Assembly (NCBI GenBank): GCA_002633005.1
Contig: NMRA01000739.1
Coordinates: 107,925-171,924 of the forward strand
Reading direction: 5' to 3'
Source of the DNA: Phoronis australis
Taxonomy: Eukaryota; Animalia; Phoronida
Length of the DNA stretch: 64,000 nt
The notes under the pieces were generated by a model. The model was not told the DNA's origin. It saw only the letters and a program-made list of their open reading frames with translations, and searched no databases. Shown here piece after piece: positions 5,001-52,181 of the stretch. The position numbers and the translations under genes were made by a program. Position 1 is the stretch's first letter, and every line of letters starts with the position of its first letter.

Positions 5001-5931
5001 TTTTGTAAAAAACCCTTAGTCTGTGTGTGGGGGGGACTGCTGGTGAGCAGTCGTGGGGGTGGGGAGGTTACACGTTATTGAAATCATGGACGCCCTGGAA
5101 TATTGGGAACCCCATTTTGGACACCCTATTTTCGAAATTCTGGATAAAGGCCTGCCTCCACCCCTCAAGTTTTCAAGTATTCAGGTTAGATAACCTGAAT
5201 TCTCCATTGGTCAGTGACTCCATTTAGGTCAGGTATTAACCTTAATCCTTCAGTACCTGTGTACCTTGACCCTATACCAGATTCAGGTGTTGGAGTTAAT
5301 ACCTGTTGCTTTGTTTGTTTTTGTATTATCTTGTTGGCCCATATCACTTGGTATAAATCACATTGGTGAGTTTTCTTGTTGTGTTAAAATTCTGGCACTT
5401 TTTGAATACCATTTATTTGACTCCAACAGCACAGTTTTCATGTACCTTACTGGTCTATGTTTGGCTTATTTCCCACCCTTTGAAATTTCCATATTTTTAC
5501 ATTCAAATGCCCAATTTCTACAATTGAAAATGTCTGTGTCTCATTTTGAGCCAATTTTAGTTCCCAAATGTACAAACCTTTCTTACTTTTGAGTCACGGT
5601 CAGCATCAACACCTTTTTGACGTACAGTAAGTAAGTACAGGGTCAGTCTCTACTTTTATTTGACTCTTGCATTTTTGCATGCGGTTCTCAAGAATGTAGT
5701 TCTGTGGCATTTATCCGAATTGGCCGTTGGAGTTAATGCGGGTCCCCAACTTCTCAAAAATTGAATTGCCTATTCACGACGCCCACCTATCTGATTTTTA
5801 GTTTGGAAATTTAGCACTTAGCGTCCTGGGTATTTACTTAGTATTGGATGAGTATTATAAAAGTTTGAAACGAAGCTCATTTTGTTGTTTTCAGTTTACT
5901 TTCTCTGACAGGGCTTCAATGACGTACCATC

Positions 5932-5959
5932 ATGGAACCTGAGGAGATAACAGTTATTG
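5932..5959 (+). CDS. Rab11-FIP-like protein, coding exon 1 (MEPEEITVI, first C2 strand)
   Basis: ATG in a good context (ATCATGG); donor G|GTAAGA at 5960; phase 1 joins in frame to the exon at 10381. Confidence 0.75.
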
Positions 5960-6152
5960 GTAAGAATGGGTGAATTTACTGATACTACATGTACATGTTG
6001 GTGTTGTCGAACCTCTCTGTTAAAGGTGCAGTAAGTCTGACTGAGGCCAGTTGCTTGTAGGTTTATAAGTCGAACACACTATGTACTCAGATTAAGAATG
6101 GTTTCCAGATTCATAAAACCACTCGGCTGTTCAATTTATTCAGCCAGATATG

Positions 6153-8845
6153 CAGCACATATCACAAATTTTTGTTCGACCATTAGCCAATCGCAATGCC
6201 AATTCATAAGACAACCCCCCAGCCGATTCTTGATTGTCAACCAGCCGTCGACCGACTCCATTTTAAGGTGGTCAGCTGCTTCTGTTAGGCTAGAGTTTCA
6301 GTTGCGTAATAGGTTATCAGGCTATTGTCGCATTGCAAGCTGATCTGCATATTGCTCTCTGCACAGGGTGAAATAAATTAACCTAGTTTTAAAGTGTGTC
6401 TCACTGGTACACAAGTTCACTCGGTAATTCGAAGGCTCAAAACAACCCATAACTGAACATTTTGGGATTATGGATTATGGACAATGCAACCAGTTTTGAA
6501 TAACAAGATGTGAAAGTTTTGAATCGTGACAGCAATGATTTCAGTTATAAATATTGATCGCGTCTCAATCAATTCAGCACTGTTTTCACTTTGAAAACAC
6601 AGCTGTTTTTGCATTTGTAACTATACGACCATGACGACCATGACGTTAGCTTTTTTGCATGTTCACAAAAGTGCAATAGAAAGCGCACGTGTGTAAAGAA
6701 ATAAAATGTGGTCAGGGCCCTACGTAAATCAACTGTGAGGAACTACAAAACATACCTTCAAATTTAGATTATACAGTTTACAGCATACCACTTATAATGT
6801 AAGTTCTTAATGCACACAACTATTGTAATATCCCTTAAATTAAATGTAACCAACTGTGTATAGTACAAGAACGTTTGTGTACAGTAGAGTCATATGTTTT
6901 AATCTGGTTAACAATTCTTCACCCTGTATTGAAAGCAACAATTTCGGTGCTTAGTATTTCAAGCATTTATTTTCAAGAAACTTTTTGGAAAGAAGGCAAA
7001 CTAAAATACTACAGAACACTTAGTAATAACCGCCTAGATTTGAAAAGTGTTCTCATTCAGAAATAATCACTCAACATATGCTTGTAATGACATGATAACT
7101 TTTATTCACACTGAATATGTACATTTATGTACCTGAAATTTACAATACGTAGACACTGAACTGAACAACGGGCATTGTGGGCAGGTGATCTCCGAGTATT
7201 CCGTTATAACGCGCTTACATTTTGAGAACCAGTTGGATGCCCGATATTCAGAGGATAAAATTGGTTCTCAAAATGGTGGGCACAATATATCTGACTTTAG
7301 ACCAACCACTTTTATTGTTTTTTAATGTTTTAGTGTTTGTAAATGCTTAGTGTAGATGGCTCAGTGCAGTAATACGTAGGGTTTATTGTGCTCTTTACCA
7401 ACATTACAACCCCGTGCCTGTAATAAAGTAATTGTCATGAACATCAAGCAGTTGTATATGTTTAATTCTAATCGTCAAGTGTGTTTCGACTGTTCTGTTT
7501 GTAATTACACGTTTGCAGCTGTTAAAAAACTGACGAATTTCATCATGCTTTGACTTACGCCTCCCGATTCACGTATTTTTGCAATTGGGCATTTGAATAT
7601 TTTCGCATGCATATAACTTACCTCTTCAAAACATTAATTAAAAAACAAAACCTAAACTAGAGTTTCAACCCCGGTACAAGAAATTTGCACCGCTGCTATA
7701 AGACATTGAAGAGAGCGATACTTTTTGTAAATTTTCGGGCTCTCTTGGGATAGTGAGTAACTGAACACTGTCTACCAATCACCCCATGACTCCCTAAATT
7801 TGCTTTGTAATTTTTGTTATAGATATGAATGATGTATGCGTTTATGTTTAGCATGGTATTCTTTTCTGAATCACTGCTTTATTTTTAACACCATCGTTGA
7901 AAACGCAATTATTAACACCTGGATTTTTTATAACACCGAAGGCCCGTTACTCCAAAGATTGTATTTTCAGAGTATTAAATCCTTGTAGTAACGACATACG
8001 CAACACACGCAGTATTGTGTTTATACCCTTAGGCTCGGAAGGCTGCAGTGGAAATAATATGGTTACGATTTTTACGAACTCGGAAAGTGACTTCAAACAC
8101 AAAGTGAGGGTTCATGGTTGACGCTACAACCAATCCTAACTTTGCGCTCGCCGTTTCAATGTATCAGTGGCGTTAAAATCTGCGCTAGTGATCGCCCAGT
8201 TGTTGACGATTGGTGATGAAGTGTTAATCAAATTACTACCCTATGGGTACAATTGCGAGCTACTCATTGAATATTTCCCGGCTTGAAAACACCTGCGGTT
8301 GTAACATGTACAGTGTTGTTTTTGAATTGTCATTCAATTTCATTGTACAGTAACAGTTAAACGTTTCGTGATTGTTATGCGTAAAAAATGCCTCATAGCT
8401 AGAGTTCGAACTTATGTTTTCCCGAGACCATTTAGTGTTTTAATTTTCCACGCCGTCGATAATTCCACAAGAACATTTGCTTTGTTCTAATTTCATGCAA
8501 TTTGTTCAGTTTTACTAATGTCAAATAGTCTAGAAACAGTTGATAAACTGCGGGTTTAAGACTAGAGTGGCCACTAGAGAACGAACAACAAACAGTCCGA
8601 TGCCTGCTTGGCCAAAGTTCACTCGCTGATGCCAAGTCATAAAATGGTAATTGCTGACTGAGGATACGCATAATCCGAAATGGTCATCTAAGCTAGGCGA
8701 CCAATTTTCCAACCCAATTGCCGACCGGAGAGGCGATTCAGATAAAGGCTCTTAGCCGACCTCTGTTGGTCGACTACCGATCGGCTAGACGACTGGTCGT
8801 TGACCGATTTCCTACGGGTCAGACAAAAATTTGTGATATGTGCTA
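6153..8845. mobile_element. ~2.7 kb non-autonomous DNA transposon with terminal inverted repeats
   Basis: agcacatatcacaaatttttgttcgacc at 6154 is the near-perfect reverse complement of ggtcagacaaaaatttgtgatatgtgct ending at 8844. No transposase ORF was recognised inside. Confidence 0.7.
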
Positions 8846-10380
8846 TAATGCATTCTAGCACTATCTTGGCTTAACTCCAATTCTAGTACATTACATTTTT
8901 GTGATAATCATTTCAAATAATAGTTGGGTTCCTCAAATGGTGTTTTGTTTTGTAATCGCACTACTTCTGCCCAGAATTGGCGATGTTTCTGAATGGTGAC
9001 GTGTTACAAAATATCAAAGGCAAATGTACTCTTGCGTCGTAATACACTAACTCCAGAGTTTTGGACGTTGTTTATTTTGTTGTCTTTCTGATGAGTCTTG
9101 AATGTGTTAGTCAGTGTTGACTGTTTGAAAAAATTTAGTACAAGTTCCGTCAATGATTCAGTCAGTCCATCAACTCACAGTTCAATCAAAAGATTGCGTT
9201 TCCGTCAAACATTGCTTCAGATCTGACTGGGCTTGTTGTCATGGCATCTTAGTTTCTGCTGCCAAGGCAAAGCCCAGCATCAGGTGAACAAAGCCAAACA
9301 CAGCAATGACAGTTTGGAGGAGGCCAAATGCCTGACTTGACGAATGTCATTTTTTGTCAACAGAACAAAATTTATAGCTGTTTTTATGAGTATCCCCACT
9401 AATATACTTTAAATTACTAGTTAAATTAGATAGCAACTTGTGCTGCGTTATCAACAAAGCTGAAATTATTGCAAATGACAGCTTTACTGCGTAAGTGTCA
9501 AGGTGCTGTGTCAAAAACACGAATAAAAATGGCAATGCGTTTCTTTTGTCTCGTCACTAGAAACAAAATTTACAGGCAACATTACTTTCAAATAGAAAAC
9601 TGGGCTTGTTTTTCATAATTGACAGTTCTCAAAGTTTCACTCACATGTCACAAGGAAATATGAATTTGCCATGTTAATGCTGATTTGGTTAAAGGACTTT
9701 AAAGCTTAGGTTAGGTGTTATGTAAGATGAAATCATCCTTCAAGAAACCACTTTTCTCTTGATCTCAACACCTGGACTGGATTTAGCTCAGGCGTGAGGC
9801 ACTCACTCCGTTATACTACCAAAATATGGCTTTGTATGTTGAAATATCAACAATTTCAGATGAAATAATTGTCAAAATTGGTCATTATCCATCGCTGCTA
9901 ACATGAACACTTGCAATTTCTCAAAATATTGGCCAGTGGTATGGGGGTTTTCCGTAGATGAGCCCATGGGCGTGTATTACCTTGCATTTCAGTAACATCG
10001 GCGTTTATTTGACGTAATTTTCTGAATAAAAACGGGTAGGCTTATCTACGGCAAATCTCGGTAGATGTGGAATGTAATGAAGACTGATCAAATAGTATTT
10101 CATGCTGCTTATTTTATATGAAAAACCTGCAAAATAAAATCCCCTTTTCTACCATGTTGTGTCCTAAATTGGTGAGGTTTCACTGTGCACTCTTTTTTTT
10201 CCTTATCTGAAAATTGCGTCTGGTTTCCGGATCATTTGTGAACAACAACTGAATGAGGATGTATCACAGCCAGGCATTTTTTTCGCGAGCCATTTTCTTG
10301 TCTTGCAATTACCAGTTTGGATCAAATAATTAAATACGTTTGTCATTAGTCATTATTATTTGTAATTATCTTTATTTTAG

Positions 10381-10522
10381 TTTATCATGGTTTGGATCTC
10401 CCTTGTAAGAAGAAAGGTCGGTCAAAGTTCTCCGTTATATTCGGCGTGGGGAGCAAAAAGTTTCGCACGGCAATGGTTGCAGACTTAGCGGGTCACCCCG
10501 TATGGAACGAGGAGTCTGCTAT
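10381..10522 (+). CDS. Rab11-FIP-like protein, coding exon 2 (C2 domain)
   Basis: tttattttag acceptor and GTAAGG donor. Translates VYHGLDLPCKKKGRSKFSVIFGVGSKKFRTAMVADLAGHPVWNEESA, which matches the class I FIP C2 pattern (G.EKY.TSV....G.PVW.EE). Confidence 0.85.
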
Positions 10523-10745
10523 GTAAGGGCGATGAACAGTTGGGCGAACGTTGCCAATGCTAAAATCTGCGAATTGGTTATAGAAGAGGATAGTCTGATG
10601 TTCCCTTTAAGTCTGTGTATTACCTTATTGACAGGTTTGCTTATTTAGCCAAATATTTAGCCAAGTATCCACATGACTACAAATTGTAACTCAGTAAAGT
10701 AAAAAGCCTTGAGAATTTGACTTTTACCCAGTCTGTTATTAATTG

Positions 10746-11513
10746 GGTCACATGATCATGTCGTTTGAATTTGTAAAATTTACTAAACAGAAAGGTACAT
10801 TGATAGCAAAACAACGACCTTGATAACAATGTTCAAGCTGAGATCTCAAACACGCTGCCATGGTTTTCTAAAGTATCATTTTGTTTTCATTTTACGCTAC
10901 TAAAGGCATTTCATGAAAATTTTAAGTTCTATTTTTGACAGCTCCTCATGGAAAAATGAAACAAATTAAAAATAATTCCTATTGTTTTGGAGAACATTAC
11001 TAAAGTATAGTACCTTAAAGTTTCACATGATTCCGATTGTCTGCTTCTGAGAAGCCATGTTCCAAAGATAACCAACTTTAGACACTTTTCTATGGTCTTA
11101 CATAACAAAAGCGCAAATTTATGGCAACGAGAACATGTCTGTCACATGTGGTTGTTCAATGAGGTTATGCCACATTGGTTTTCAAAAATGAAATTGACAA
11201 ATTTTTGTTGAAGTTCATCTGGTTCCATTGAACTTAAGAAAAAAGGAAGGAAACAAGAAAAAATGAAAGTTTTGGCAAAAAAACTACATACATGAATCTT
11301 GGGTTTGGTTACTTTCACCAAATGCTTTTGAAGTCAGAAGTAAAACCAAAAGTTGCATTAGACAAAAACAAAATGTTATTTCGGAAATAAACCTGCATCA
11401 GCACTTTTGAATTCTCATTTTTACCAAATAAAATCTGGCCATGATTCTGATACCATTGTTTTGATTGACTGTACGATTCTTTTTTGCTAAAATTTAGTCA
11501 TGGTCATGTGACC
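10746..11513. mobile_element. ~770 bp MITE/non-autonomous TIR element in intron 2
   Basis: Inverted ends GGTCACATGATCATG ... CATGGTCATGTGACC with an AT-rich non-coding interior. Confidence 0.55.
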
Positions 11514-12869
11514 TATGTAATGACATTGGTATACGCTAGTTAAAAATGAAAGTACAGGCTTTCTACTTTTGGAAAATGTATATTTTGCTAATTTTGCTAT
11601 AGTTCTGTAGATATTTGGCTTAACGCTCAGACTATCTTCAACCATCTAAATTGTTTGAGTTTATTAAAATGTTCTATTAAAATTGTGTAATTATTATAAC
11701 AGACGTTTGTCTCAGAATAGATGTCAGTAATTTGAATGAAACAGCCCTCACTTCTTGTTCTTCTTCTCCTCCTTCTTCGTCTTCTTCTTCTTTTTGTCAT
11801 CTTTTGATTGGTGAAACTTCAACTAGTTGAAAACAGAGACCAAAAAATGTTGGTCACTTTCAAAAGACTTTTCTTGACACTGACAAATGTAAGAAGTTGT
11901 AAGAGGTGGGGCCCAACCACAGTTTTAGAAGGAAAATTGCCATGCTAGTGGCGATAGGGGGAACGGCTGACTCCTTCCCCAAATCTGCCTATAATTGCTA
12001 GCCATGTGAGCAGCCTCTGACACAGATAATATAATTTATATTTATTGTGCTATGACTTTACACTGTTCTGAAGTTAACGGCTAAACACGCCACTAGATTG
12101 TGTTTTTCGCCATGGAGACTAAAGTTGCATAATTTGTCATCTTGGAAAGGTCTTAGGTGAACGTTGACCTGTCATGCAATAAGGCTCAGCGCAAACTGTA
12201 AGAATTTAACGAACCAACCTGTCTGTTTCTCGTAGAGTGCGCGCCAAAAGTAGTCAGACCATTACACTTGTCATTTTATCTTCAGTGAAGGGAAATTCTA
12301 CCTGCACTCAGATGTCACTATGCAAAATTCCAAGTTATTTTGTGTGATTACTTTTGCTATGTACTATAGTTTATCATAATGGCTTTTAGGTTCTGCGGAT
12401 GTTGTTGTTTTCGTGTTTCATCGTTGTTCATCTGCTATACAGATTGACATGTTTAGTCTCTAGGTGATAGAATCCTTGTCACTTGTAGCCTGTTTTCCAC
12501 GAAGAAAGCCTCTGGTCTTTGTTTTTCTGGAAAAGGTTGCCAAAAGGTCATTCTAATTCAGTCTGTAACATTTTAATTGACATATTTACCTTTCAAATAG
12601 TTGGCTTGTGAAAAGTGTCATAACAACAGAGGAAGTGAAAATGTTGCTTTAACCGTATCAAGACCAGGAATTCTGAGGCTAGGTTTTTATGTCCCATATT
12701 AGCAGCGAAAATATTAATTGTGAAAGTGAGGCTTAAACAGTGAAGCAATTTGCCATACTGGCAAGTTATTTTATCATGTCATTGTTTCACAACAACTTTG
12801 TCGCACCCCTCTTCAGTTGTGCTGCCTCCTTTTGGACTCCACATTCAAAAGTGTCTGTTTGTTTTTCAG

Positions 12870-13029
12870 TCATATTGACAGCCCTGGCCATGACCTCAAT
12901 TTCGTTGTTACTGATAAAGAGACCGTCTTGGGGCAGGTGTCGCTACCGGTCTCTAGCCTCCCTGGGGCGTTAGGGCGTAAGAAATCTCAAGCAAAGCTGA
13001 TGCCGCACAAGAAATGTGCAGAGCCTCAG
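12870..13029 (+). CDS. Rab11-FIP-like protein, coding exon 3 (C2 domain)
   Basis: ttttcag acceptor and CAG|GT donor, phase-consistent. Translates HIDSPGHDLNFVVTDKETVLGQVSLPVSSLPGALGRKKSQAKLMPHKKCAEPQ (C2 'LGQV.LP' strand). Confidence 0.85.
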
Positions 13030-13400
13030 GTATACATTCAGGGAGAATGAATTGTCAATCTTTTCATGAAACTGAAGTTAACAGCTTCTAGTTTTCATGA
13101 CATTCATTGCTGAGTACTGTAAACCTTCTAATGGAAGCCAAAGTTTCAAATAGAAGCTGGGGTTCAGGTCTACTGAAATTGATAAACGCGCGTCTCCTAT
13201 ACCAGCCGGTTCGGCCATATCTTGTGTTACATGATACTAGCTTGGAGCGTACGATTCGGTCTAGCAAGATTTTGTGTTTAGATTTTGGTTTCCCTAATAA
13301 GCTGATGTCTTGCTTGTATGGTTTATTAACTGTGTCCTTGACTATTTTTGCATATGTGTCTGTTTATTAAGTATGGCCTCAGCTTTCTTCTTATGCATAG

Positions 13401-14024
13401 GGTGAAATTATCTTTGATGCCTGGATCACTCGAAACAAGGCCTCCACCATCACGCCACGCCTTTCAATGACATCACTTCAACAACACAAGTCAAGTCCGT
13501 TTCAGAAATTACGTAACATTCTGCCTCGATCACGCTCTCGTACCCAGACTGCTTCTCAGCCTGGCTGTCTGGAGAAGCACCACCAAAAACGGGAATTCAT
13601 GTCCGTCAGCGACCTCCCTGGCGAGGTCACCAGGTCGCAGTCAGTGACCTCACTTCCTGTCATACTCCAGCTCAAGGCAAGCAGCTGCAGTCACATCGAT
13701 AATGTGACCTTGGTGCCAGAGGTCACGGGAATCTCACCCAAAGAGGGTCCAGTAGGGGGCGGCACCAGGCTGGTCATTAGGGGTCAGAATCTGGGACTGT
13801 CCAAGGAGGATGTAGTAGGACTCAACATATGTGGTGCTAACTGTCTGGCAAGTCTAGAGTACGAATCATCGCAGCGGCTCATCTGCACAACCAAACCATG
13901 GAATGCTACTACAGGACACGTGTTAGTTACTACTCAGTCGGGAGGACGAGGCCTGTCGGCTGTACAGTTCACGTTCACTGAGGAGAACAAACCAGCAATG
14001 AAACTGACGGAAAAAGATCGAAGG
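13401..14024 (+). CDS. Rab11-FIP-like protein, coding exon 4 (end of C2, Ser-rich linker, Sec5/EXOC2-like IPT/TIG domain)
   Basis: catag acceptor. GEIIFDAW ends the C2 domain; PEVTGISPKEGP...LVIRGQNLG...VGLNICGANCL...LVTTQSGGRGLSAVQF is an IPT domain. Donor AGG|GTACGT at 14025. Confidence 0.9.
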
Positions 14025-15022
14025 GTACGTAGAAAGGGTCTCCTGAAGGGACAAGAAACTGTTCCCAAAGGGATTTGGTGTGATTTCTCAAAATCAATGC
14101 TCAACAGTTTAGAAGATTGTGTATAGTTGATCTAAAAAAATGACGCAACCAAATTCATAGTTTCCAATTGCACTCCAGCGACAATTTGACATTGGCCAAG
14201 ATTTGACATCTGGTCAGCAAATTTTCACTTGGATGTGCCCTTCATGAGGAATCTTGCTCTCTGTTGTTTGGAATCATTATCTTTAAGGTTATGTAGGACC
14301 CTAGAAAAATGTCTAAATTTGGGTAAATTCGAAAATAATATCTCATAAATGGGTGATCAGACTCGTGGTAAAATTTATCATGACGTGGGAATAGTGTTAA
14401 TGTACAGACCTTGCAACACTAAGACTAGGCTAGACAAGGTGCATTACCCCGTGCGGTCTCTTGAGTTACCAAATGAATTTGCCGACAGCAAGATATGCTT
14501 CAGCCGAGCAGTAAGTCAAGCCTATTCGAAAACACATGCCCCAGAATGTAAATCTAGGTTAGAAAGTACTGCGCCTCCAATTATTTCCACCAGATTAGGT
14601 TCACTGTGTTGGAAACACAATGGTTATGCTAATGCATTGTCTGCAGGTGATTGGAATGAGTGGGTTGTAATTTGTAGAGGCAACTTGGAAGTCATGGTGC
14701 ACTATTCTCCAAAAGACTAGCAGGATTTGTTTTTGAAATGTTCCACATTTGCAAGACAGGTTATCAAAAATAGGGTTTGAACATGTTTTGTGGAAAAAAT
14801 GAAACGTTCCATAAAAGAAAAATGAGATATCAATTTAGAAAACTATTACAGCATAAGATATCAATAACATTGTTTTAGATGGGCAAAACGTCTGTGAAGT
14901 TAGTTCATATTGTAGCACTAATACATTGTTTATAACTTCTTAAGAGGTGCACCTCTAGAAATTGATTATTTATTGTGGTTAAGTGTTTGAAAGCATTACC
15001 CGATGCTGATGTTTGATTTCAG

Positions 15023-15125
15023 AGTCTGTTCGGCATGATCACTGGGAACGACAACAAACACGCGAAAGACAAAGCCAAGCAAGACCTGACTGAAGAGTTG
15101 TATAAACTTCGCCGGGAAAATCAGT
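15023..15125 (+). CDS. Rab11-FIP-like protein, coding exon 5 (coiled coil)
   Basis: atttcag acceptor and GTAAGT donor. Translates SLFGMITGNDNKHAKDKAKQDLTEELYKLRRENQ. Confidence 0.85.
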
Positions 15126-15490
15126 GTAAGTCTCGCATCTGAGCTAATTCTGTACCGTTATTCGCACAAAAATATTTGCTAAGAATCGTCATATTTGTAT
15201 GTTTCAAAGGCTGACTTCATTCCTTGCTTGTAACAATAAATTGACTAACAGTTGTTTTATGATGAGAGGACATAGGGTACTTGGACTGGCCGACATTTTC
15301 AGAACTTCCTCATGCATCAGATTTCGTCTTGTTATCTTTATGCATTTAATTTTTATAAAAATCGATTAATTTTAAAAATTTCAAATTAGGAGTTATAATA
15401 CTAAATAAAACGTGTCAATTGGAATCGGCATTCGTGAAAGTGACATGCCTGATTAAAGGGCCAGCAGACTGACTAGTTACATTCACAGAA

Positions 15491-15800
15491 CTACTGTAAC
15501 CCATGCATAGCTATATTGCTACTGTAACCCATGCATAGCTATATTGCTACTGTAACCCATGCATAGCTATATTGCTACTGCAACCCATGCATAGCTATAT
15601 TGCTACTGCAACCCATGCATAGCTATATTGCTACTGCAACCCATGCATAGCTATATTGCTACTGCAACCCATGCATAGCTATATTGCTACTGCAACCCAT
15701 GCATAGCTATATTGCTACTGTAACCCATTTATAGCTATATTGCTACTGTAGCCCATGCATAGCTATATTGCTACTGTAACCATGTCTATCTAATATTGCT
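15491..15800. repeat. 28-bp minisatellite, ~11 copies
   Basis: Unit CTACTG(T/C)AACCCATGCATAGCTATATTG in head-to-tail tandem with no spacers. Confidence 0.95.
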
Positions 15801-16394
15801 TTAGACACAAGAAGACTCACCCGTCATTTCCAACTTCACCAGTTCACCTTCATCATTAGTGATTTTTTAGTTCTTCCTGGACTGAGGTACAAGTTAAGTT
15901 GTCCAATTCAATTTTTTGACAATAAAAGTCTCTGAAGGTGACAGCACAGCAGTTTCCACTAAAGGTGCAATTTACCTCTTTCCTCCCAGAACAATGACTT
16001 TGTGTACGATTGAACTACAAACGTGATTATTTTGTGAGCTGAAAATAAACAATTTGCATGATTCAGTTGAGATGTTTTGCTAGTGCCTGTAGAGGTTACT
16101 AGGGTGTTAGCTTCTTAGTCGCATGTATAGTTTTCAAACTAAATTGAAGAGTGTCGAAACTCTCAGAAGACTTGATGCTCAAAGCTCTGACTAAATATCC
16201 ATTTCTGTGAGACTATTTTGAGGGTGCTACTGATGGTGCCTAGCCTCAAAGCCAAAACATTTTGGTGATGATTGCATGCTAGTCATAGCAAATGAACAAC
16301 ATGGCCACGTGGTGGCATTGATCAGGTTGTTCTATTTTGTAGACAATGTACACCCACCTTTGCTTAGTGATGAATTTTAGGAATCTTTTTCTAG

Positions 16395-16492
16395 CTTTAC
16401 GAGAAGAAAACCGTAATATGCGACTGTATGTTGACAAGTTGGTTGTCAAGGTGATGGACTCGTGCCCCCAGGTGTTGCAGTACCCCATTTGA
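16395..16492 (+). CDS. Rab11-FIP-like protein, last coding exon (FIP Rab11-binding domain)
   Basis: tttttctag acceptor. SLREENRNMRLYVDKLVVKVMDSCPQVLQYPI* matches the FIP-RBD consensus L..YID.LL.RVME..P.IL. Confidence 0.88.
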
Positions 16493-19400
16493 TAGTGGGA
16501 TTTTCGCTAAGGTGTAGTGGTATTGTTTGGAGTGAGTTTTTACTGTGCGACTGGTACTGTGCCCTTGTTTGAAGATTTGTGCCTGGAAAATCTCTATATG
16601 TTCTGAATCACGAATATTTTGTCAAATGTGCAGAAGCGAGAATGTGCCTAGACATCTGGAGGGTGATGAGGGAAGACCATCCGCATTGCAAAGTCTATCG
16701 TAGTTGATCCAACAAACTCACAAAATTTTGTTTCAAATTCTGAATTCTAATTCAATGCCAACTGTTAAGTGTGGTTACAAATTTGTCAACAGGTCATCCG
16801 TGGGCTGCATTCTCTTTAATTGAAATTTGCACCTGTTCATTTTTTGAATTGCCCTGTACATCTGCTGTTTTTATCCATCCCTTATTGTCTTGCAGAGGTC
16901 TGATTGTCACACATTAGACAAAATATTCATAAACTGTACTCTGGTACATAAGTAAGAACCTACTTTTTGATTGATATCGATTTTACTCAATTTTATATCA
17001 TCTAGTTAAGGGTTTTAGCTTCAGTCCTTGTTGGTAGTCTGTCCAAAATAAACATTAAAAAGTCTATTTGTAAAGTACTCTGTTTTAACGTATTGTTAAT
17101 ATTGTACCCCAGTTTAAGTGCCTGCAATCAAATATTTCCTGGGACATTAAGACATTTTAACAAAAAACCTTTATTTCTAATTCCATACTTGGTGATGATT
17201 ATGACTACACTTGAAAAGAACTGGCAATGTAGACTCTTAAATAGTTCTATGGACATAGCATTTCATTACTACCTGCACTCGGTGAATTTTAGCATTTCAT
17301 GTTATATAGTATTATAAGATTAGGTGATGCTTTCTTAAAAGTTTTTATCCATATTGTATGTGAGACATGGCTTTTATTTGTTATCTAGGCCAACATTAGC
17401 ACCTTTTGTCTGACTTATGTCACGCGCAGTTTGATTGTTAGAGCGTGCAGCCAATCATTTGTCTTGGGAGCCCGTCACGTGTATTGTTGCAATCATTGTT
17501 TGTTTTAGCACGTAGGAGGAGACACTTGTAGCTAGAAGAGGTCATCACGTGTTAATGAGTAACCCAGGCTGACTAATCAATGACTTCACTAACCTTAGAA
17601 AGTTCAGTAGCGAAATATTATATTTTTCTGATGAATTCAGTCAGTACTATTTAACGGCACTCTTTCAGTTTGTTTTTCAGTTGAAAACATCATGTGAAAG
17701 GAATTTGACTGCAAATGAATCTAGTTTAAAGTTATTCCCTAATGAGGCTCTTCATTGATGTAATCAAATGTTTTCAAAATAACCAGAATTGAATATGGAA
17801 TTTTCAAAATAGTTTTTTGTGGTGCACCTACAAAGTGGCCGCCACAGTTGAATGCCATTGAGCATCACTTTTCGTGAAATGTCTGTAAAGAAACCAAATA
17901 CATGCATGTTCTTAGTAATGTCTATCAATTTATGAAGCTTTTCATAAGTTTTTTAATTCATGAAAATGAAGGAAAGAGTGTGCACTTTAAGAGTCGAGCA
18001 TTCTGCCTCTGTGTTGCAACACGTGTCTCGCTAGATCTGGGTGAATTATTCATTTTTATATGTTTCTTGGTTAATGTGATGGGGTATGCGCAAATGACTA
18101 CACGCAAAGTGTTCTCTTGTGGCAATATATAATTGTCCTGATGTTTATCTGATATCAAGTCATTTAGAAATGGTATCCAATAGCAGGTTCTTGAAGGTCA
18201 CTGATGGAAAGAGATTGCAAAATATAATGGGTAGGCATGTTGTAGCCATTAAGGGAAACCCATGACAATGGGTAATTAAAGGTCATTGAGATATACTGTG
18301 ATCAGGTAATAGGGATGAAATCTCAGGTCAAAACTGAATGTCGAATCTCCAACAATGGTCAGACTGGATTTTCAGTGTGATATGCTAAAGAGGGCCGGTA
18401 AAGTAGCACCATTTTCTGATGCCCGGCAATTTTGGGACAAGAAAAAATGTTTCCAAAATTAGTTTTCCATGGTCCACAAAATGCGTAGAAGGTCCAAAAC
18501 TGTTTTTCAATGGTCCAGGAATCTCACGCATTGTCATAAATATTGGAATTCTGTCCCGCGAATTTTGGACAAGGAGAAATGTGTTAGAAACACTAAATTC
18601 GGATCAACGCAACTCTCATGCCGCCACAGTTTTCAATGGAAGATTACTGCTCTATAGGGCTTGAACCTGATTAGAATCGTTATCGCTGGCTATTTTTACC
18701 ATGACATGACGGTTACTCAATTGTTTCTCGAGTCTATCTTGTTTTTGTCTTTTGTTTTATGCTTTATCTAAGAAAAGAATCACAGAGTTCCCTAACACAA
18801 GAATGGCCGCATCAGAATTTTTGTCATTATGCTTTTGCAGGGATGGCCTAGATTTAATAATACATGTACGGTAAAATCTCAGCAATTTTGGACAAAATAA
18901 TTTTCATAAAGATCATTGTTTTGTTTTGTTTTTCAAAGCCCTCTAACATTGCTGCCAATGGCCACAGTTTCTCAAAACATTGTCTTATGGTAGATTTAGT
19001 ATAGAACTTTAAACTGTTAAAACATTTGGTTGGTGCTACCCTACTTCTTTTCGTGAAAAAGTAAACTAGAAAGTTTCAGTTGTCAGCTGTGTTGTGTACG
19101 AAATTTTGTAATCTTGGTGAATTCAGTTTAGGATCCAGTAAGTGAAGGGGTAATGGTCCGTATAAAGTGCTTGTCTTTTGAGAGCTAGTGTGATGCCTGT
19201 TATTCAGTGGAGAAATCTGGTTCTCAAAGTGCTGCACTTTATATCAGATCATTACCAGAGAAGGAATAGCAAAACTGCAGACAACAAAGCATAACTGTGG
19301 AACTAATGGAGAAATTACCCTGGGTACCATAGGGACCTAGATGTACCTCTTGGAAACTGAGGCTAAGTTGTAGCTGGGAATCAATTCCTAGGTTCAGTGT

Positions 19401-31620: not shown

Positions 31621-32104
31621 AACATTTCCCTACGCTCTTGTTGTTTTATTTTTGCGCCTATGAAATTACAAAATTAATCAGCTTATGTTGCAAAACGGCT
31701 TTCCACATCAAGATAAACATCGTTTGCAACAACAAAATAGGTAATTCAGTAGGCCAGCTTGTAAAAATACCGTCAAAGAGCCGCCATCTCTGGAAAGGCT
31801 GGCCTATACTTCCAGGAAAGGGTTCCTTCGTGTCAGTCGTGGGAGATATCTCAATTGCTTATAGAAGAAACCAATTACTACATCATTTCAAGGAGAGCTG
31901 TGAATTCAGTTTCTTAGCCTAAACGTATTTCAGTACGATGTCATGTTTGGTAGTAAAAATGTCCCTTTCACTGATTGCTTTTTTTGCAATTTCAGGTCTC
32001 TCCAACCCGTTTCAGGAATGCCTGGGCATTTAGAAGCATGATCTCGTTTTCCTCTTGAAATACTACAAGACGTACAAAGGAAATATTTATTCCTGCATGC
32101 TATT

Positions 32105-33049
32105 ATGAAACCGTTCATCACACAACTAACGTTGTTGCTCTTCATTGCCAAGATACTAAAGCCAAAAGGATTTCTCATATCCCACGAGCCGCCACTCTCG
32201 ACAACAATGAAACTATACGAAAAAGCTGCCGAAGTTACAACAGGTGCGTTTACATTAGAGGCACACATAAGAGAAATCCGCGGGAACAACAGTGAAAACG
32301 CGACGTTCCAATACCTCTTCAAAATGGCCGACTACAGATTACGTAAACAAAAAAATCTAGATCATCCACGGTTCTCGCGCAGTGCTAGTAAAGGTCGAAG
32401 GCGGAAAACACACAAGCACAAAACCCCACAACTTATTATGAGAATGAGGTGTTCCGATAAAGAAACCAGAACTGACCACTACAAACATCTGATTGGGCCA
32501 GTGTTTGACATAAGATACTTGTCATTTGAAAAACCAAAAGAGCTCGTAGACACCGAACAAAATGGGTCAAAAGTAGATAAGAATATATCTATGGTAAGAT
32601 CTGACAACATTAGTGATATTAATTCAAATTTTGACAAAGGCCGAGAAGCAGCCTCTGACCCAAGTCAAGAGAGTGCAACTGGTAGACTTCTACGTCATCT
32701 TCGCTCAGTGAATGAGAGGAAGACTTTAGCAAAACCGTGGGATTGCGAATCTCGCGTGATTTGGCGGGACTTGGGTGACAACTATCTCCCACGCTTTCTT
32801 CGCAGTGTACAGTGCAGTTCGGATAGGTGTTGGAACAGATTATTTTATTGCGTTCCTCGAGTATTTACCGTTCCAGTATTCAAACGGAAGTCATTATCTT
32901 GCGAAGAGCAGAAAGTCAGGAACGCTAAGAGAAAACGAGCGGGCAAAAAGTGGAAGCATAGATTGGAGGAACAGTGGGAATTGTCAAAGACAAATGTGAC
33001 ATTTTGCTGTGAATGTTCACAGCGCCCAGGACAACATTTCCTAACTTAG
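32105..33049 (+). CDS. trk: Trunk/PTTH/Noggin-like secreted cystine-knot prepro-protein (314 aa)
   Basis: Hydrophobic N-terminal signal-like stretch and basic cleavage-like sites (RHLR|S). The C-terminal PWDCESRVIWRDLGDNYLPRFLRSVQC...CW...C.PRVF...W......VTFCCEC is the trunk-type cystine-knot signature. AATAAA at 33096. Confidence 0.85.
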   Translation: MKPFITQLTLLLFIAKILKPKGFLISHEPPLSTTMKLYEKAAEVTTGAFTLEAHIREIRGNNSENATFQYLFKMADYRLRKQKNLDHPRFSRSASKGRRRKTHKHKTPQLIMRMRCSDKETRTDHYKHLIGPVFDIRYLSFEKPKELVDTEQNGSKVDKNISMVRSDNISDINSNFDKGREAASDPSQESATGRLLRHLRSVNERKTLAKPWDCESRVIWRDLGDNYLPRFLRSVQCSSDRCWNRLFYCVPRVFTVPVFKRKSLSCEEQKVRNAKRKRAGKKWKHRLEEQWELSKTNVTFCCECSQRPGQHFLT

Positions 33050-37189: not shown

Positions 37190-37505
37190 TCATGCGGTTT
37201 CCTGACAAGCCTCGTTTTCAGCTCCTCTAATCGATTTATCTTCCACAAGTTCGCGCGCGATGCGTGTCAACCGTGAAATAACGTACCACAGAGTTACCCT
37301 TGCTTGAGGTTCAGAAGCCAGACAAGCCACTCCCAGTTCGTCTAATTGTTCGAAGTACGTCGTCTTTGGTCCGTCCACCGTACCAAATTCCGTTATGTCG
37401 CGTATAACTCGCCCGAAGCTGTAGATATCCGACGATCGCGTCGTTCTCGCTCCCGTGAACAATTCGGGTGCAATATGAGTAAATTTATCGGGCGATACCT
37501 GGCCA
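37190..37505 (-). CDS. Divergent protein kinase, coding exon 3 (subdomains VIII-XI)
   Basis: aaacag acceptor; YGQVSPDKFTHIAPELFTG...SDIYSFG...CLASEPQAR; stop at 37190. Total ~427 aa. Confidence 0.88.
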
Positions 37506-37545
37506 CTGTTTTGTAGTAAAAGAAATTGTTACAACGCGCACACAA

Positions 37546-37698
37546 CAGTGGCGGATTTAAGGGGGCCATGAACCCCCCCTTACAATTTTTCCCAATTCAA
37601 TTTAGCAGTTCGGGGGTGCGAATGTCTGACGAGCAAAATCCTAGTGGCTAATACTCTGCCCTGCTACCCCCGGACTCAAAATCCTGGATCCGCCCATG
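37546..37698 (+). mobile_element. Short hAT-like MITE family B, copy 1
   Basis: CAGTGGCGGATTT ... GGATCCGCCCATG; 5-bp TSD CACAA. Confidence 0.85.
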
Positions 37699-38367
37699 CA
37701 CAAAGACCGGTTAAATGTATGAATTTACACAAGGAATGAGAATTATGAAAACATGTCAGATGCCGCTCTCGATCAACCAGAACACATCAAAATTTCCTTC
37801 GGAGGTGCACGTTACATGCTCACGTGCGGACTTCGGTCATGAAGCAAGCCATGTGACCTTCAAACGGGAGAATAGTTAGCCGTATGACCGAGGTTTGCAC
37901 ATGCCCAAAACGTTGCGTTATCTAAAATAAAGGCATAATCTTGCAGGAAAGACAAGTGAGAAATCACTGATTTTAATCAATGAAAAGTTGTACTTGTGTA
38001 TTTATGTTATTTGTTATACAACGTACAGCTTTGTATCTGTGGCATATTGAAGTACTTGAACGAATGTGAAGACTCAGCCATTACCATAATTTGGGGTCTG
38101 AAAACCAACATATTGACCGCGGTGGAAGTCAATAATTGTTGTTTTGGAAAGGACATTTATGGTTTTGAGTGGATTTGACATTTCAGACTCGAAATAATTA
38201 AATGTCTAAAAATCTTTTGAGGATTTGAGGTGAATTTTATCACCCATTCCTAGAATATACAAGACAAAATTGATGACGACATCTGGGGGTATTCTACGGC
38301 ATATTAAGCGTTATCACTACCTGACACAATAATTCTCTAAAGACGCCGTATGTTACGACCAACTTAC

Positions 38368-38862
38368 TATGTTCTGCCGTGCTCGTCGGTAGCATGGGAT
38401 AAATCTATTATCACAACTTCTATGGTAGAAGGAGGCTTTTCCGTTATAATCAGGTTGTCCGTTTTAACATCGTTGATCAGAACTCCGTAGTCGTGCACAA
38501 CTTGAAGAGCATTTGCGGCCTTCAACACAACGCGAGCCCATGTGAGTTCAGATAAAGAGACGCCTTGCGTAAGCGCCGACTCAATCGTCCGACCCGGGTA
38601 GACGTAGTCCATAACGATGCCGTCGACGATGTTACCGACATCTTTGTGGGTGCGAAATAGACCGTAAGTCCACGGCACGCATCCCGTGTTTCGTAGCTTC
38701 AGAAGTAGTTGATACTCGTGTAGTAGATCGTCGTTATTGATGATGTTTTTAATGCACACGGTTTTATCTCCATTTTGCAGACTAAGAGACCCGACGTAAA
38801 CGCGACCGCACGATCCCTTACCTACCAGAACAGGAGCTTGCTTGGTGGAGTCAATTTCATAT
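38368..38862 (-). CDS. Divergent protein kinase, coding exon 2 (subdomains I-VII)
   Basis: VGKGSCGRVY, VCIK, HE, IVMDYV, INDVKTDN, IIDLS; acceptor gcttgtag and donor GTAAGT. Confidence 0.88.
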
Positions 38863-39399
38863 CTACAAGCAAACAATCATTGCAGAATTCTTAGGTGCTC
38901 GTGGACTAAACAACGTGTTTTGACCATCCAATTATGTGTGGAAAGCTAGAAAAAATACCCGTTTCCTGGTTGCCATAAGGAGACTGGACGGACCACAACA
39001 ATTACGTCCGCATGGGGGGACACAAGTGCGCTGTTTTCGACCTTAGCGACTTTTAATAATTGGACTGCTCGACTGCCACAAAAACACACCCAATGATCCG
39101 GAAATTACCAGGAAAAATATACATATCGTTACCAAGCCTGTTGGATTGATGGAACAGGTAAAAAATTCGAACTTGCTTGGATTCGACGTTCTTTTGATTG
39201 CAGCCGCCGCAAACCACAAATTTAATGCATTTTTAATAGATGGAGAAGAACGTCCATGTATCACAGTCAATTAATCCGTATGTGCAAATAAACTTTCCAA
39301 GCTAATCGGAAAGTCTGAATTTAAATTTGTTCTGATAACTACCGCGAAGTCTTTCACAACGATACCTCTCATAGTACAAGGAAATAGTGTGGAACCTCG

Positions 39400-43667: not shown

Positions 43668-44699
43668 TAATACACAACACGTGCTATAGTCTATGACTGC
43701 ACTAAAACCAAGGAGCGTACTACACTGTACACTCCTTGCTGACACCCACTAAAACCTAGTCGTCAAAGCGAAATGCTGCACGTTATAGTCAATCACGCGC
43801 TGAAGCCTTGGTGGGATGTAATCTATGTTCTTTGTAAATACATGTACATGTATATGCCGCAAACTGTCATCACGGTTTGGTTAATATGTCGTGCGTGAAG
43901 TTATATTACCCAAAGGCATGAAATTTCAAGCTCGTTCAAGATGCCTCAAAAATAGGCAACTAGATTTGTCGTGTTTTGGGGAATTATTGATAAAAAATGG
44001 TTGTCTGTTGAAAAAATAGATTTTATTCAACCTTGTCCACATCTGAAAGCTTGCAAAGCTTTTTTTTACTTAAATTCGAGATGGACTGAGTTCTTCCGAT
44101 AGTAGAACTGTTAGTATCGTGAGTACTTTTAGCAATGCTACTTCCAACCGACCACACAACAGCCGACCATAATTAGCAGACGACGTACTTGCCGGAAATA
44201 ACGCCAGATAATTTGGCCAAGTGTCACTAGTGAATAATGACGTATCGGCCTACGCGTAAGACCACAGATTTTGTCACATTCTTAGTTCGAAGTTTGGAAA
44301 CTCGACGATTTACACTCGAGAAATCAATGTTCGTCCGCCTAAGCATAAAACCGGCTTGTTTTCGTACTCACCGAATAATTGTACTTAATATTCTCTGAAT
44401 AGGATTGGATTTCACTCTCACAAATACCGAGTTGTTTCAACTGCTCATTGCTTTAACTATTTTATATTGACTTATATGGTCGTTATGTGCTGCCGCCTTT
44501 TGTAAAAACAAAAACAAAACACGCAAAAAAGGCCAGGAAAAGTGGACAGCTCTGATGGTGACCACCTCCACCCAAACAACAAAGAACAAACAGTAATACC
44601 AAAAAGGCAAAAAAGCAAAAGACTGCAAGAACCTGGGTCACACAGGACATCACAGCCCATGACAAATTTCTGTGGCGTCAACAACCAACAGCAAACTTT

Positions 44700-46407
44700 G
44701 ACAACCTGCCGCAGACTCCAGCAGGATTGTTCGAGTTGTTTTTTTCTGATGATGTAATTGATATGATTGTGTCAGAGACGGTGCGCTATGCTGGAACTAA
44801 AGGTGCTCATGATTTCACTGTTACCCAAGATGAGATGAAATCATTCATTGGCATACGCCTGGTATCCGGATACTCATCGACACCTAGGCGCAGAATGTAT
44901 TGGTCTCTTGACGATGATTTGCACAACACAGCAGTAGCCAACACTATGTCTCGCAACAGGTTCGAGACATTAATGCGTTACTTGCATTTACAATGTAGTA
45001 GACAATAATCGCCTGGATGGCGCTGACAAAATGGGAAAGGTGAGACCTCTGATGGCGGCTATCAATGAGAAATGTCTCATCTATTTCAGCCGAGAGCAAA
45101 ACTTGTCAATTGACGAGTCATTGATCCCCTACTACGGGCGACACGGGGCCAAACAGTTTATTCGCGGCAAACCCATCAGATTCGGATTCAAAATCTGGGC
45201 GTTGACCACTGCTTTAGGATACGTGGTTCAGTTTGAACCATATCAAGGAAAACGAGGTCAGCAGACGGGTGACACCGCAGGGTTTGGTATGGGGGGTGGA
45301 GTCGTGCTTGATCTGTTGGCTGAGCTACCAAAGGACAGACCATACCACCTGACCTTTGACAACTTGTTCACCTCACTGGACTTGGTTGACGAGCTCTCGA
45401 GACAAGGCATTGCCTGCACTGGCACAATCCGTGCAAATCGTCTGGGAGACTGTCCCCTGACAGCAGTGAAGGAGTTCCAGAAGACACCTCGTGGTACATA
45501 TGACTACTCATACGATGCAGCAAATAATCTTTGTGTTGTCAGGTGGAATGACAACAGCATTGTCAATATAGTGTCCAATCTTCACGGAGTTGCCCCCTTA
45601 CAAAGGGCAAAAAGATGGTCTCGCGCAGAGAGCCAGCGCATACGGATTGACCAACCCTTTGTGATAAGTCACTACAACCAAACCATGGGTGGCGTCGACA
45701 GAATGGATCAAAACATAGATAAGTACAGGGTCTCGATACGATCAAAGAAATGGTGGTGGCCGATTTTCGCCTATTGTCTAGATCTTTGTGTACAGCAAGC
45801 ATGGCACCTCTACAGAGCAACCGAAAGTGGAAAGGAGCAGCACAAAGATCTCCTGGAGGTTCGGCGCGAAATTGCTAACGTGTTGCTTATGAAGGGGAAA
45901 CGAGTCACTCAGTATGTTCCTAAATCCGTGCCTTGCTCAAAGAAAGTATTGCCTGATGTCAGATTTGACAGAGTGGACCACTTCATTAGCACAAGAGACA
46001 CCCAGAGGCGATGTGCAGTTTGTAAAATGAAGACAAAGCGTTTTTGTGTGAAATGCGATGTTAGCCTTCACGACAAATGCTTTATGGCATTTCATGTTGC
46101 ACAATAAAGATACTTGATACAATATTCTCATGAATTTTTGTCTTTTATTTTACTTTCTACAATATCTTAGCATCTAAAAACAATCAATATCATACTACAT
46201 CTTTCATTTTTACTGGTTTTAGTAGGCATTTCTGTTGGTGGTTTATAGACCCCACATGTGCCCAGCGTCCCTTTTGTGGGACGAAAATAAAAACGTCAAA
46301 AAAACGTAAAATAAAAACTTCTTTCCATTTTTCCTTATTCATTATGTTCATTGTATGTCTAAAGGCACATAATATCTGAATATGCAGTGAAAACGCGTAG
46401 TTGGGCA
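44700..46407 (+). mobile_element. piggyBac transposon, PGBD3-like, frameshifted and 5'-truncated
   Basis: ORFs 44727-45008 and 45031-46107 carry SIDES, FDNLFTS and MGGVDRMD (DDD triad) and a C-terminal Cys-rich domain RRCAVC...C..CDVSLH..CF..FH. A subterminal inverted motif (TGCCCA at ~46259 versus TGGGCA at ~46402) ends at an N. Confidence 0.9.
45031..46107 (+). pseudogene. piggyBac transposase catalytic core and CRD (358-aa open frame)
   Basis: Uninterrupted DDD core, but out of frame with the upstream N-terminal portion at YLHL/DN (~44990-45001). Confidence 0.8.
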
Positions 46408-50834: not shown

Positions 50835-50962
50835 TAACGCCTGCGCAAGCCGTTCCCAAGTAGGCTTCCCAAATTTCCGTTTGACTGCACTGAATTTTAG
50901 GTATGAAAGCATTCAGAAAATCCGATAATTTTGTGTTTCAATGAAAAAGTATTTTTCTTCAG

Positions 50963-51210
50963 CAATGATGGCGCCACAGTTGCCATTCTCGCTCGCAACG
51001 CCGACAGAGGAGATGTTGTGGCAGCCGAGCTCCGCCGTGGCGGGAAGAACATTCGCTTCTACCAGTGTGACGTCACCCAGAAGGACCAATGCAAGCAAGC
51101 CGTCCAGCAGGTTGCTAAGGACAACGGTGGAAAGATTCATTTTCTTGTGAACAACCACGCTGTCTTCAATAGCAGCAGCAGCGACGTTGGTGTTGGAATA
51201 AGGAGCTCGG
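50963..51210 (+). CDS. SDR exon 2
   Basis: NDGATVAILARN...FYQCDVT...GKIHFLVNNHA; donor GTGAGT. Confidence 0.88.
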
Positions 51211-52181
51211 GTGAGTTACATGTCTTTGTCAGAAAGGAACACGCCATCTCTGCATTAATTGGCCCCGAAAATGGTTCCTACAACATTGCGCTGTGCAAAT
51301 TAACTGATACCGATCTCGAAGGAGTGGTTAAAAACAAAAGAAGCCCACTGGATTCATTGGGGAGAAAACTCATTTTGGGGGATTGTTGTTGATTGGGATA
51401 AACTTCTTAAGTTGTCATCTTTGATCATAGACAGTGACCACTGTCTCTAGCTGGCCCCCAGAGAGACGGGGATGCTCGCTTTTTCACGAATTATGCCTCA
51501 CATTGATTAAAACATCAAAGGCACGTTCTTGCTTTTGCGTGCCATGCCGCTGGTCAATTTTCGAGTCGATTTTTGTGTAAAGAGATTAGATACCTGTGCC
51601 CGGTTATAACTTCCCTAAATCTACTGTGTATTTGAGGGTTTGTGAAACCACTGATTATCCTTTCTTGTGCTGTTTGAGTCTCATCACTCACTGGGTCAAT
51701 TTTTGGCTTTGATACAAGTCGAGAGTGAACTCTACGTCGAATTCTCAGCATTATTGAAAATAAGTAGGGATCGTTTCATGCAACGCCCCTAATTTAAGAA
51801 CTACGCCCCTAATTGTCTTGACTGACATAAGGGCTCAGTTTTTGTCTATCTTATTAGAAAATGTCACTTTGACCTCGTAACAAAGGTATACTGATAGAAA
51901 AACATATAAGTGAGTTATGAACGAAAGATATATGCAAAACAATTACGGAACTCAGTTGAGTCCCTACCCTAATAGGGACTGTTTCATGCAACCGGCCATC
52001 GGTACCTGGCCCAAGTTGCACACATAACATACAAGATTCTCAAATTTACGGTATCGTTGCCGTGTTCGAATTACCTAGCATATATCTTGTCATTGGGGTA
52101 TGTGGTAATTTCGTTTCGCGTCTCGTTTGAAATACACAAGCCACTGCACGTGTTTAACACTGATCTCTCCTTCTTTTCTAG

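Follow-up and report, generated by a model that had tools for sequence, protein, structure and literature searches.

The Rab11-FIPs are divided into class I, comprising RCP/FIP1, FIP2 and Rip11/FIP5 with the Drosophila Rip11 included, and class II, comprising FIP3, FIP4 and the Drosophila Nuf; going by the class descriptions, human and fly FIPs are not known to carry an IPT domain. In the literature, the class I layout is described as a C2 domain plus a Rab-binding domain (RBD) (bioRxiv 10.1101/2021.01.25.428185; PMC3279423), and a title cited in PMC4828438 has FIP3/FIP4 linking Rab11 to Arf6 and the exocyst. On recycling endosomes, RalA is reported to occur together with Rab11, and Ral effectors share overlapping switch regions (PMC9139244); that Ral review does not name FIPs anywhere. 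Here we describe a gene of the phoronid Phoronis australis that lies in a 64,000-nucleotide window (contig NMRA01000739.1, positions 107,925 to 171,924; all coordinates below refer to this whole stretch), at 5932-16492 on the + strand, and encodes in six coding exons a protein with an N-terminal C2 domain, an internal Sec5-type IPT domain and a C-terminal RBD. The protein carries the domains of a FIP and is class I FIP-like with an added Sec5-type Ral module, not Sec5; it is a new variant of the Rab11-FIPs and likely a dual effector of Rab11 and Ral.

Similar to class I Rab11-FIPs, the protein has an N-terminal C2 domain, a C-terminal RBD with a YID-type motif, a long flexible linker and, within it, a motif resembling the MARK2 site of FIP2. 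Unlike class I, it and its relatives have, between the C2 domain and the RBD, from one to three IPT domains of the Sec5 type and so depart from the two-domain layout; the NPF motif is absent from the window protein and present in 6 of the 40 clusters (80% identity) into which the 60 members of its family, described below, fall. As in class II the RBD follows a presumed coiled coil, but the N-terminus is a C2 domain and the predicted second GTPase is Ral, contacted via a folded Sec5-type domain; in the Pfam scans the EF-hand family, a class II feature, was reported on no exon or homologue. With Sec5/EXOC2's Ral-binding domain (PDB 1UAD, 1HK6) it shares the IPT fold, the contact residues and the same predicted Ral interface, whereas its IPT is internal, contains a two-residue insertion and is not accompanied by the helical domain PF15469. 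That domain was detected on no window exon or family homologue scanned (a true Sec5, P0019, scores 544 bits), and the protein has 384 amino acids compared with about 900 for Sec5; a Sec5 fragment was rejected.

The coding exons lie, all on the + strand, at 5932-5959, 10381-10522, 12870-13029, 13401-14024, 15023-15125 and 16395-16492 (28 + 142 + 160 + 624 + 103 + 98 = 1155 nt, i.e., 384 amino acids and the stop); all introns have GT donors and AG acceptors, with phases 1, 2, 0, 0 and 1. Exon 1 contributes the ATG and the first C2 strand, exon 2 the part of the C2 domain with basic loop 1, exon 3 a further part of C2, exon 4 (with phase 0 on either side) the last C2 strand, a low-confidence linker and the IPT domain, exon 5 the beginning of the C-terminal, presumably coiled-coil, helix, and exon 6 the FIP RBD and the stop. 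The ATG is preceded by an in-frame TGA (5920-5922), and homologues share the start M-E/D-P-x-E with the window protein. Transcription was assessed in three public raw RNA-seq runs (X1-X3; same species label, other individuals, 18-19% of each read), in which the five junctions are supported by 16, 15, 19, 37 and 18 reads, respectively, when summed, the first also by one contig; X1 and X3 show 5/5 junctions and X2 4/5, the second missing. In every junction read the first mate is on the - strand, indicating RNA from the + strand given the usual stranded library. Because the reads are 151 nt long and none covers the whole transcript, the full isoform was inferred from the chained junctions and full-length homologues. 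Gene structure, expression and the order C2-IPT-RBD are established. A sequence-only reading of this DNA had put forward six GT-AG exons with consistent phases and a product of 384 amino acids, which splice sites and translation bear out, and had named RNA-seq as the check on the junctions; all five having been read on the + strand, the C2, IPT and RBD exons belong to one transcript unit. Upstream there is probably a non-coding exon, since an RNA contig matches 5894-5958 only from its letter 36; downstream, the 3' untranslated region (+ strand) occupies at least 16493-18827, with an RNA depth of 3-16 on one strand in the three runs vs 0-0.2 on the other. Intron 5 contains a 28-bp minisatellite of 11 copies with 95% matches (15491-15800).

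The IPT/TIG domain (residues 216-304; 13716-13982, + strand) is the part of the protein that sets it apart from known FIPs, and its Sec5 type, already proposed from the sequence, now has sequence, structure and key residues in agreement, with moderate support from the tree. Exon 4 matches Pfam TIG with E 2.7e-14; among PDB entries the window IPT matches Sec5's Ral-binding domain best (73.6 bits, with 31 bits for the top single plexin IPT), and identity to Sec5 IPTs is about 50%. The model of the homologue from Glandiceps finds 1UAD chain C as Foldseek rank 1 (root-mean-square deviation 1.5, template modelling score 0.89), and structure comparison gives Z 16.7 for 1uad_C vs 13.7 for plexin A1. 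Plexin and MET IPTs resemble the domain in the fold and in a two-residue loop insertion; they differ in being extracellular receptor parts, and a residue pair characteristic of Sec5 (T11/R27) is absent from the plexin stretches examined. A plexin-type IPT was rejected (31 vs 73 bits, Z 13.7 vs 16.7). Thr219 (codon at 13725) and Arg237 (codon at 13779) of the window protein align with T11 and R27 of 1uad_C, and at the five Sec5 positions checked (T11, G12, S14, E17, R27) the window protein has T, G, S, E and R. In Sec5, T11A strongly lowers the affinity for RalA, T11 being said to bond RalA Tyr36 (PMC12407918), and R27E restores binding to RalA E38R (PMC3382198). The pair T/S11 and R27 was found in 11/11 Sec5 sequences, 38/94 family domains, 27/34 family fragments and 5/355 other IPT domains; counts by domain are redundant, and after clustering at 80% identity 17 of 40 family clusters have it. 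Among the 14 named non-mollusc members tabulated, which include the protists apart from Lithocolla, 13 keep the pair, the exception being Anneissia; Lithocolla has S and R at the equivalents of 11 and 27.

We modelled the window IPT in complex with a Ral from a metagenome (L031), GTP and Mg, a check that the sequence-only reading had suggested. The complex scored 0.85, 0.84 and 0.84 and so passed against its controls, the best of which reached 0.06; at least 94% of contacts were common to the runs, and the partner reached a predicted local distance difference test (pLDDT) value of at least 90. In a microbial calibration, 51 of 78 solved pairs and 2 of 108 mismatched ones attained the score mark; for eukaryotic pairs the numbers were 71 of 105 (solved) and 2 of 126 (unrelated). 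Contacts on the IPT side are exon-4 residues 109-115, 127-128, 158 and 187-189 (protein residues 219-225, 237-238, 268 and 297-299), T219 and R237 included; on the Ral side they are residues 36-37, 47-54, 64 and 68 of the open reading frame. Judged from E38, A48 and D49 in PMC9139244 the latter numbering is human plus one, and the Ral contact surface thus corresponds to switch I/beta-2 and Tyr36. In a Sec5-like manner, the first strand of the window IPT is predicted to pair with switch I of Ral.

At the other end of the protein, exon 6 scores 29.5 bits against Pfam RBD-FIP (PF09457; cut-off 23.3), in keeping with the C-terminal FIP Rab11-binding domain that had been claimed, and its PDB matches, each weak (E 0.04-0.2), are FIP1, FIP2 or FIP3 chains in 8 of 8 cases. 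The window motif Y364-V365-D366 corresponds to YID/YMD with a conservative I-to-V change and is followed by M373, P377 and L380; in the 60 family members Y is retained in 58, I/V/M in 56, D in 51, and P and L in all 60. Mutation of the YID/YMD motif abolishes binding of Rab11a (PMC3279423), and I481E of FIP2 is a motif mutant used with regard to Rab11 binding (PMC6438586). The C-terminal helix is thus predicted from its sequence to bind Rab11-GTP. In the Glandiceps homologue, modelled as a monomer, the C-terminal helix comprises 43 residues (386-428); by analogy with the known FIPs the tail may dimerise as a coiled coil and dock on Rab11 vesicles.

The C2 domain, the third module, is split across four exons, which explains why the exon 2 piece matches Pfam C2 below the cut-off (E 0.002-0.007). 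The family C2 profile spans residues 1-123 of the joined protein with 149 bits, so that the N-terminal C2 of the earlier reading holds; Pfam recognises C2 in the two closest full-length homologues (E 9e-12 and 2e-11), and structure comparison gives a C2 fold match with Z 17. Loop 1 of the window C2 is basic and lacks the usual Ca2+-binding aspartates; throughout the family its net charge is positive in 52/52 complete domains, and 37 of these 52 are without Asp in it. From what is generally known of C2 domains, binding of acidic lipids independent of Ca2+ may be expected. The Glandiceps homologue as modelled by AlphaFold2 has a mean pLDDT of 72.7, with values above 90 in both beta domains and below 50 in the linkers; the Lithocolla protein, folded from its single sequence, yielded an uninformative model (pLDDT 38.7). 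The linker contains S-V-S-D-L at Ser178 (13602-13616, + strand), resembling the MARK2 phosphopeptide of Rab11-FIP2 that ends in pS-M-S-D-L (S227; PMC3374749). A pattern S-[hydrophobic]-x-D/N-[hydrophobic], picked after the alignment had been inspected, is carried by 27 of the 40 clusters of the family, compared with a mean of 1.2 after shuffling. The resemblance covers five residues and could be convergent; it lends modest support to class I kinship.

To define the family we searched with the IPT (20 matches among 294 candidates), the Glandiceps homologue (23 among 7996), the alignment (5 among 7992) and a profile (1203 matches at E 0.001, of which the best 150 were listed). The C2, IPT and RBD domains occur together in 60 of 202 proteins, the window's included, in identical order in 60/60, although the profiles were built from alignment A1 with 21 of the 60 members, which match by construction. 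This extends the architecture, for which the sequence-only reading had recommended a proteome search, to an old and widespread family ranging from protists to hemichordates. Members with all three domains include the protists Lithocolla (Rotosphaerida), Amoebidium (Ichthyosporea) and Pigoraptor (Filasterea) and, among animals, the sponges Sycon, Oscarella and Ephydatia, Nematostella, Porites, Montipora, Acropora, Owenia, Tubulanus, a chiton, gastropods, bivalves, Gordionus, Plectus, Anneissia, Glandiceps and Ptychodera; the groups represented besides sponges include cnidarians, annelids, molluscs, a nematode and hemichordates. The Paralvinella gene model lacks C2 and combines three IPTs with the RBD, and Ramazzottius showed the IPT alone at the profile threshold used. 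Of the proteins looked up, 30 in all, 18 had an organism name, and no vertebrate or arthropod was encountered among these; this is weak evidence of absence, because the look-ups left 121 of the 150 listed profile matches uncovered. Thirty-eight incomplete gene calls contain C2 and IPT, 27 of them starting to match at C2 profile positions 58-65, which suggests that the position of the second intron of the window gene (residue 57) is widely shared.

Copy number of the IPT varies: 55 of the 60 members have one, four have two and one has three. Two or three IPTs are also a feature of the set P0043, P0044, P0022, P0045, P0048 and P0068 (Paralvinella, Pigoraptor, Amoebidium and others), and such proteins could bind several Ral molecules. 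At the other extreme, an oyster entry of 266 amino acids (P0042) consists of C2 and RBD without an IPT; given this entry and the phase 0 of the IPT exon at both ends, forms without IPT may arise by splicing. In the window gene no skip of exon 4 was seen among the 15 of 28 RNA joints inspected, at a depth of about 10. Skipping of exon 4 would also delete the last C2 strand of the window protein.

Family members are labelled 'uncharacterized', by a single domain name, or 'exocyst complex component 2', the last being misapplied to members from Owenia, Elysia, Acropora and Paralvinella; the Plectus member is automatically named 'FIP-RBD domain-containing protein' in UniRef. Automatic annotation of the Ptychodera protein displays all three Pfam domains, so the architecture is not hidden. 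It is described in no paper that we found (in search listings, with subscription journals largely outside and supplements excluded), which agrees, for those listings, with the earlier statement that it is not known from characterised proteins.

In the phylogenetic tree, IPTs of the family and of Sec5 were united on a branch with 91/86 support, one long family row falling outside; after 23 long-branch or redundant rows were dropped and three added, support was 78/81, below the mark for strong support, with Sec5 represented by 4-5 rows only (insects and one annelid). The window IPT does not fall in the Sec5 clade (100/100) and lies among bilaterian members of the family (93/93). The trees are compatible both with Sec5 nested in the family and with a sister position (approximately unbiased test, p 0.254). 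Mollusc IPTs form a clade (99/97, then 100/96 in the second tree). Where mollusc members (among P0024-P0052) have Glu in place of R27, the charge reversal is the same as in the experimental Sec5 mutant. A full-length class I FIP was returned neither by the word-based searches nor among the best 150 of 1203 profile matches; P0201, considered as a candidate, was rejected as an MCTP-like multi-C2 protein. That C2-IPT-RBD represents the ancestral C2-type Rab11-FIP of opisthokonts and a dedicated effector of Rab11 and Ral older than animals is a tentative proposal, to which we give rather less credence than to its being mistaken; the family may instead be a paralogue of class I or a third class of FIP.

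Taken together, we think it somewhat probable that the C2-IPT-RBD protein is an adaptor of recycling vesicles, predicted to bind Rab11-GTP through its tail and Ral-GTP through its IPT. The dimeric tail would sit on Rab11 vesicles, the Sec5-type IPT would bind Ral-GTP and the C2 domain would contact acidic membrane; the flexible linkers might then allow the protein, at sites shared by Rab11, Ral-GTP and acidic lipid, to serve as a coincidence detector or a loose tether upstream of the exocyst. Since the predicted Ral site is the site used by Sec5, one Ral would not be shared by the window protein and Sec5, and the window protein would hold it ahead of the exocyst or in its place. Of the idea advanced from the sequence, an adaptor reading lipid, Ral-GTP and Rab11-GTP together, the modules are present and the Ral model passes, and dual binding stands as a prediction; of its suggestion that the protein might link, or compete between, recycling endosomes and the exocyst, hand-over, tethering or competition are all retained, and simultaneous holding with Sec5 on the same Ral is dropped.

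Several observations count against Rab11 and Ral being bound in this way. The RBD-FIP cut-off was reached by just 9 of the 59 proteins scanned (some of these are incomplete gene calls, and a Sec5 and an unrelated C2 protein are also counted), with 17 more matching below it, which indicates that the tail of the family has diverged from the Pfam model. In the complex model the equivalent of Ral Glu38 is not among the named contacts, the Ral used derives from an organism other than the window's, and the pass may be a memory of the solved RalA-Sec5 structure (PDB 1UAD); because that structure exists, the pass shows likeness and not binding by this copy. The window IPT also has the insertion of two residues that Sec5 lacks, and no experiment on any family member was found in the literature searched. 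Finally, R27 is missing in 13/13 named mollusc sequences, nine of which have Glu, and with the pair present in 17 of 40 clusters Ral binding does not hold for the family as a whole; in molluscs a lineage-wide loss or change of the GTPase partner is possible.

The strongest alternative is that the protein is a class I-like effector of Rab11 whose IPT is dispensable or has been repurposed for another Ras-family GTPase, another partner or a structural role, Ral binding being absent or unimportant. The 23 of 40 clusters without the pair, the mollusc sequences, the oyster protein made of C2 and RBD, and the description of characterised class I FIPs as C2 plus RBD in the papers cited above are all consistent with it. 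However, all five Sec5 positions checked are conserved in the window protein (T, G, S, E and R), family members ranging from protists to hemichordates have the pair while few other IPTs do (5/355), and 5 of the 60 members repeat the domain two or three times; we regard this alternative as improbable, yet deserving of serious attention.

Two further alternatives appear unlikely to us. In the first, the protein acts as a brake on Rab11 vesicles that sequesters Ral-GTP from Sec5 and delays exocyst assembly until released, e.g., by phosphorylation of the linker. The coincidence of the predicted Ral surface with the Sec5 site, making the two mutually exclusive on one Ral, and the conserved phosphosite-like motif in the linker would suit such a role, but competition for one site would also fit hand-over or tethering, and the effectors of Ral are described as already sharing overlapping switch regions (PMC9139244). 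The second, to which we assign marginally less weight still, accepts the protein as an effector of Ral and interprets its C-terminal helix as a dimerisation coil or a ligand of another Rab (Rab14, Rab25 or Rab42-like). Many members fall under the RBD-FIP cut-off and also match generic coiled-coil families, and RBDs of FIPs are reported to bind Rab14, Rab25, Rab20 or Rab42 as well (bioRxiv 10.1101/2021.01.25.428185); exon 6 of the window is nevertheless above the cut-off with its motif kept, and the UniRef name of the Plectus member points to the same domain. An artefact, in which the exons belong to separate genes or a Sec5 exon was recently inserted into a FIP gene, is already largely refuted and hardly worth considering: no individual read covers the transcript in full, but a chance joining of exons is rejected by the five junctions read and the identical order in 60/60 members, and the window IPT groups with bilaterian family members (93/93) outside the Sec5 clade (100/100).

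An adaptor binding both Rab11 and Ral would be of interest because both GTPases steer recycling vesicles to the exocyst, and a protein with the two modules would constitute a direct physical link between them. If this is true, the Sec5-type Ral-binding domain would have a second use and Ral a new candidate effector. Because the family occurs in tractable models, Nematostella among them, as well as in unicellular relatives of animals, the origin of Ral-controlled secretion and of the Rab11-FIPs becomes testable, and the database entries that name these proteins EXOC2 can be corrected.

The remainder of the window, which contains 684 N in total and an assembly gap at about 60880-61460, holds several unrelated features. 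An open frame of 335 codons (32042-33046, + strand) has a weak match to Noggin (E 1e-4, just under the cut-off) and is possibly an intronless noggin-like gene. Two open frames on the - strand (37193-38876) match protein kinases (Pkinase, E 7e-10) and may be exons, or fragments, of a single divergent kinase. On the + strand, a short-chain dehydrogenase/reductase fragment is located at 50907-51389, and a piggyBac-type transposase (PF13843) at 44562-46104 is represented by two overlapping frames and is apparently frameshifted.

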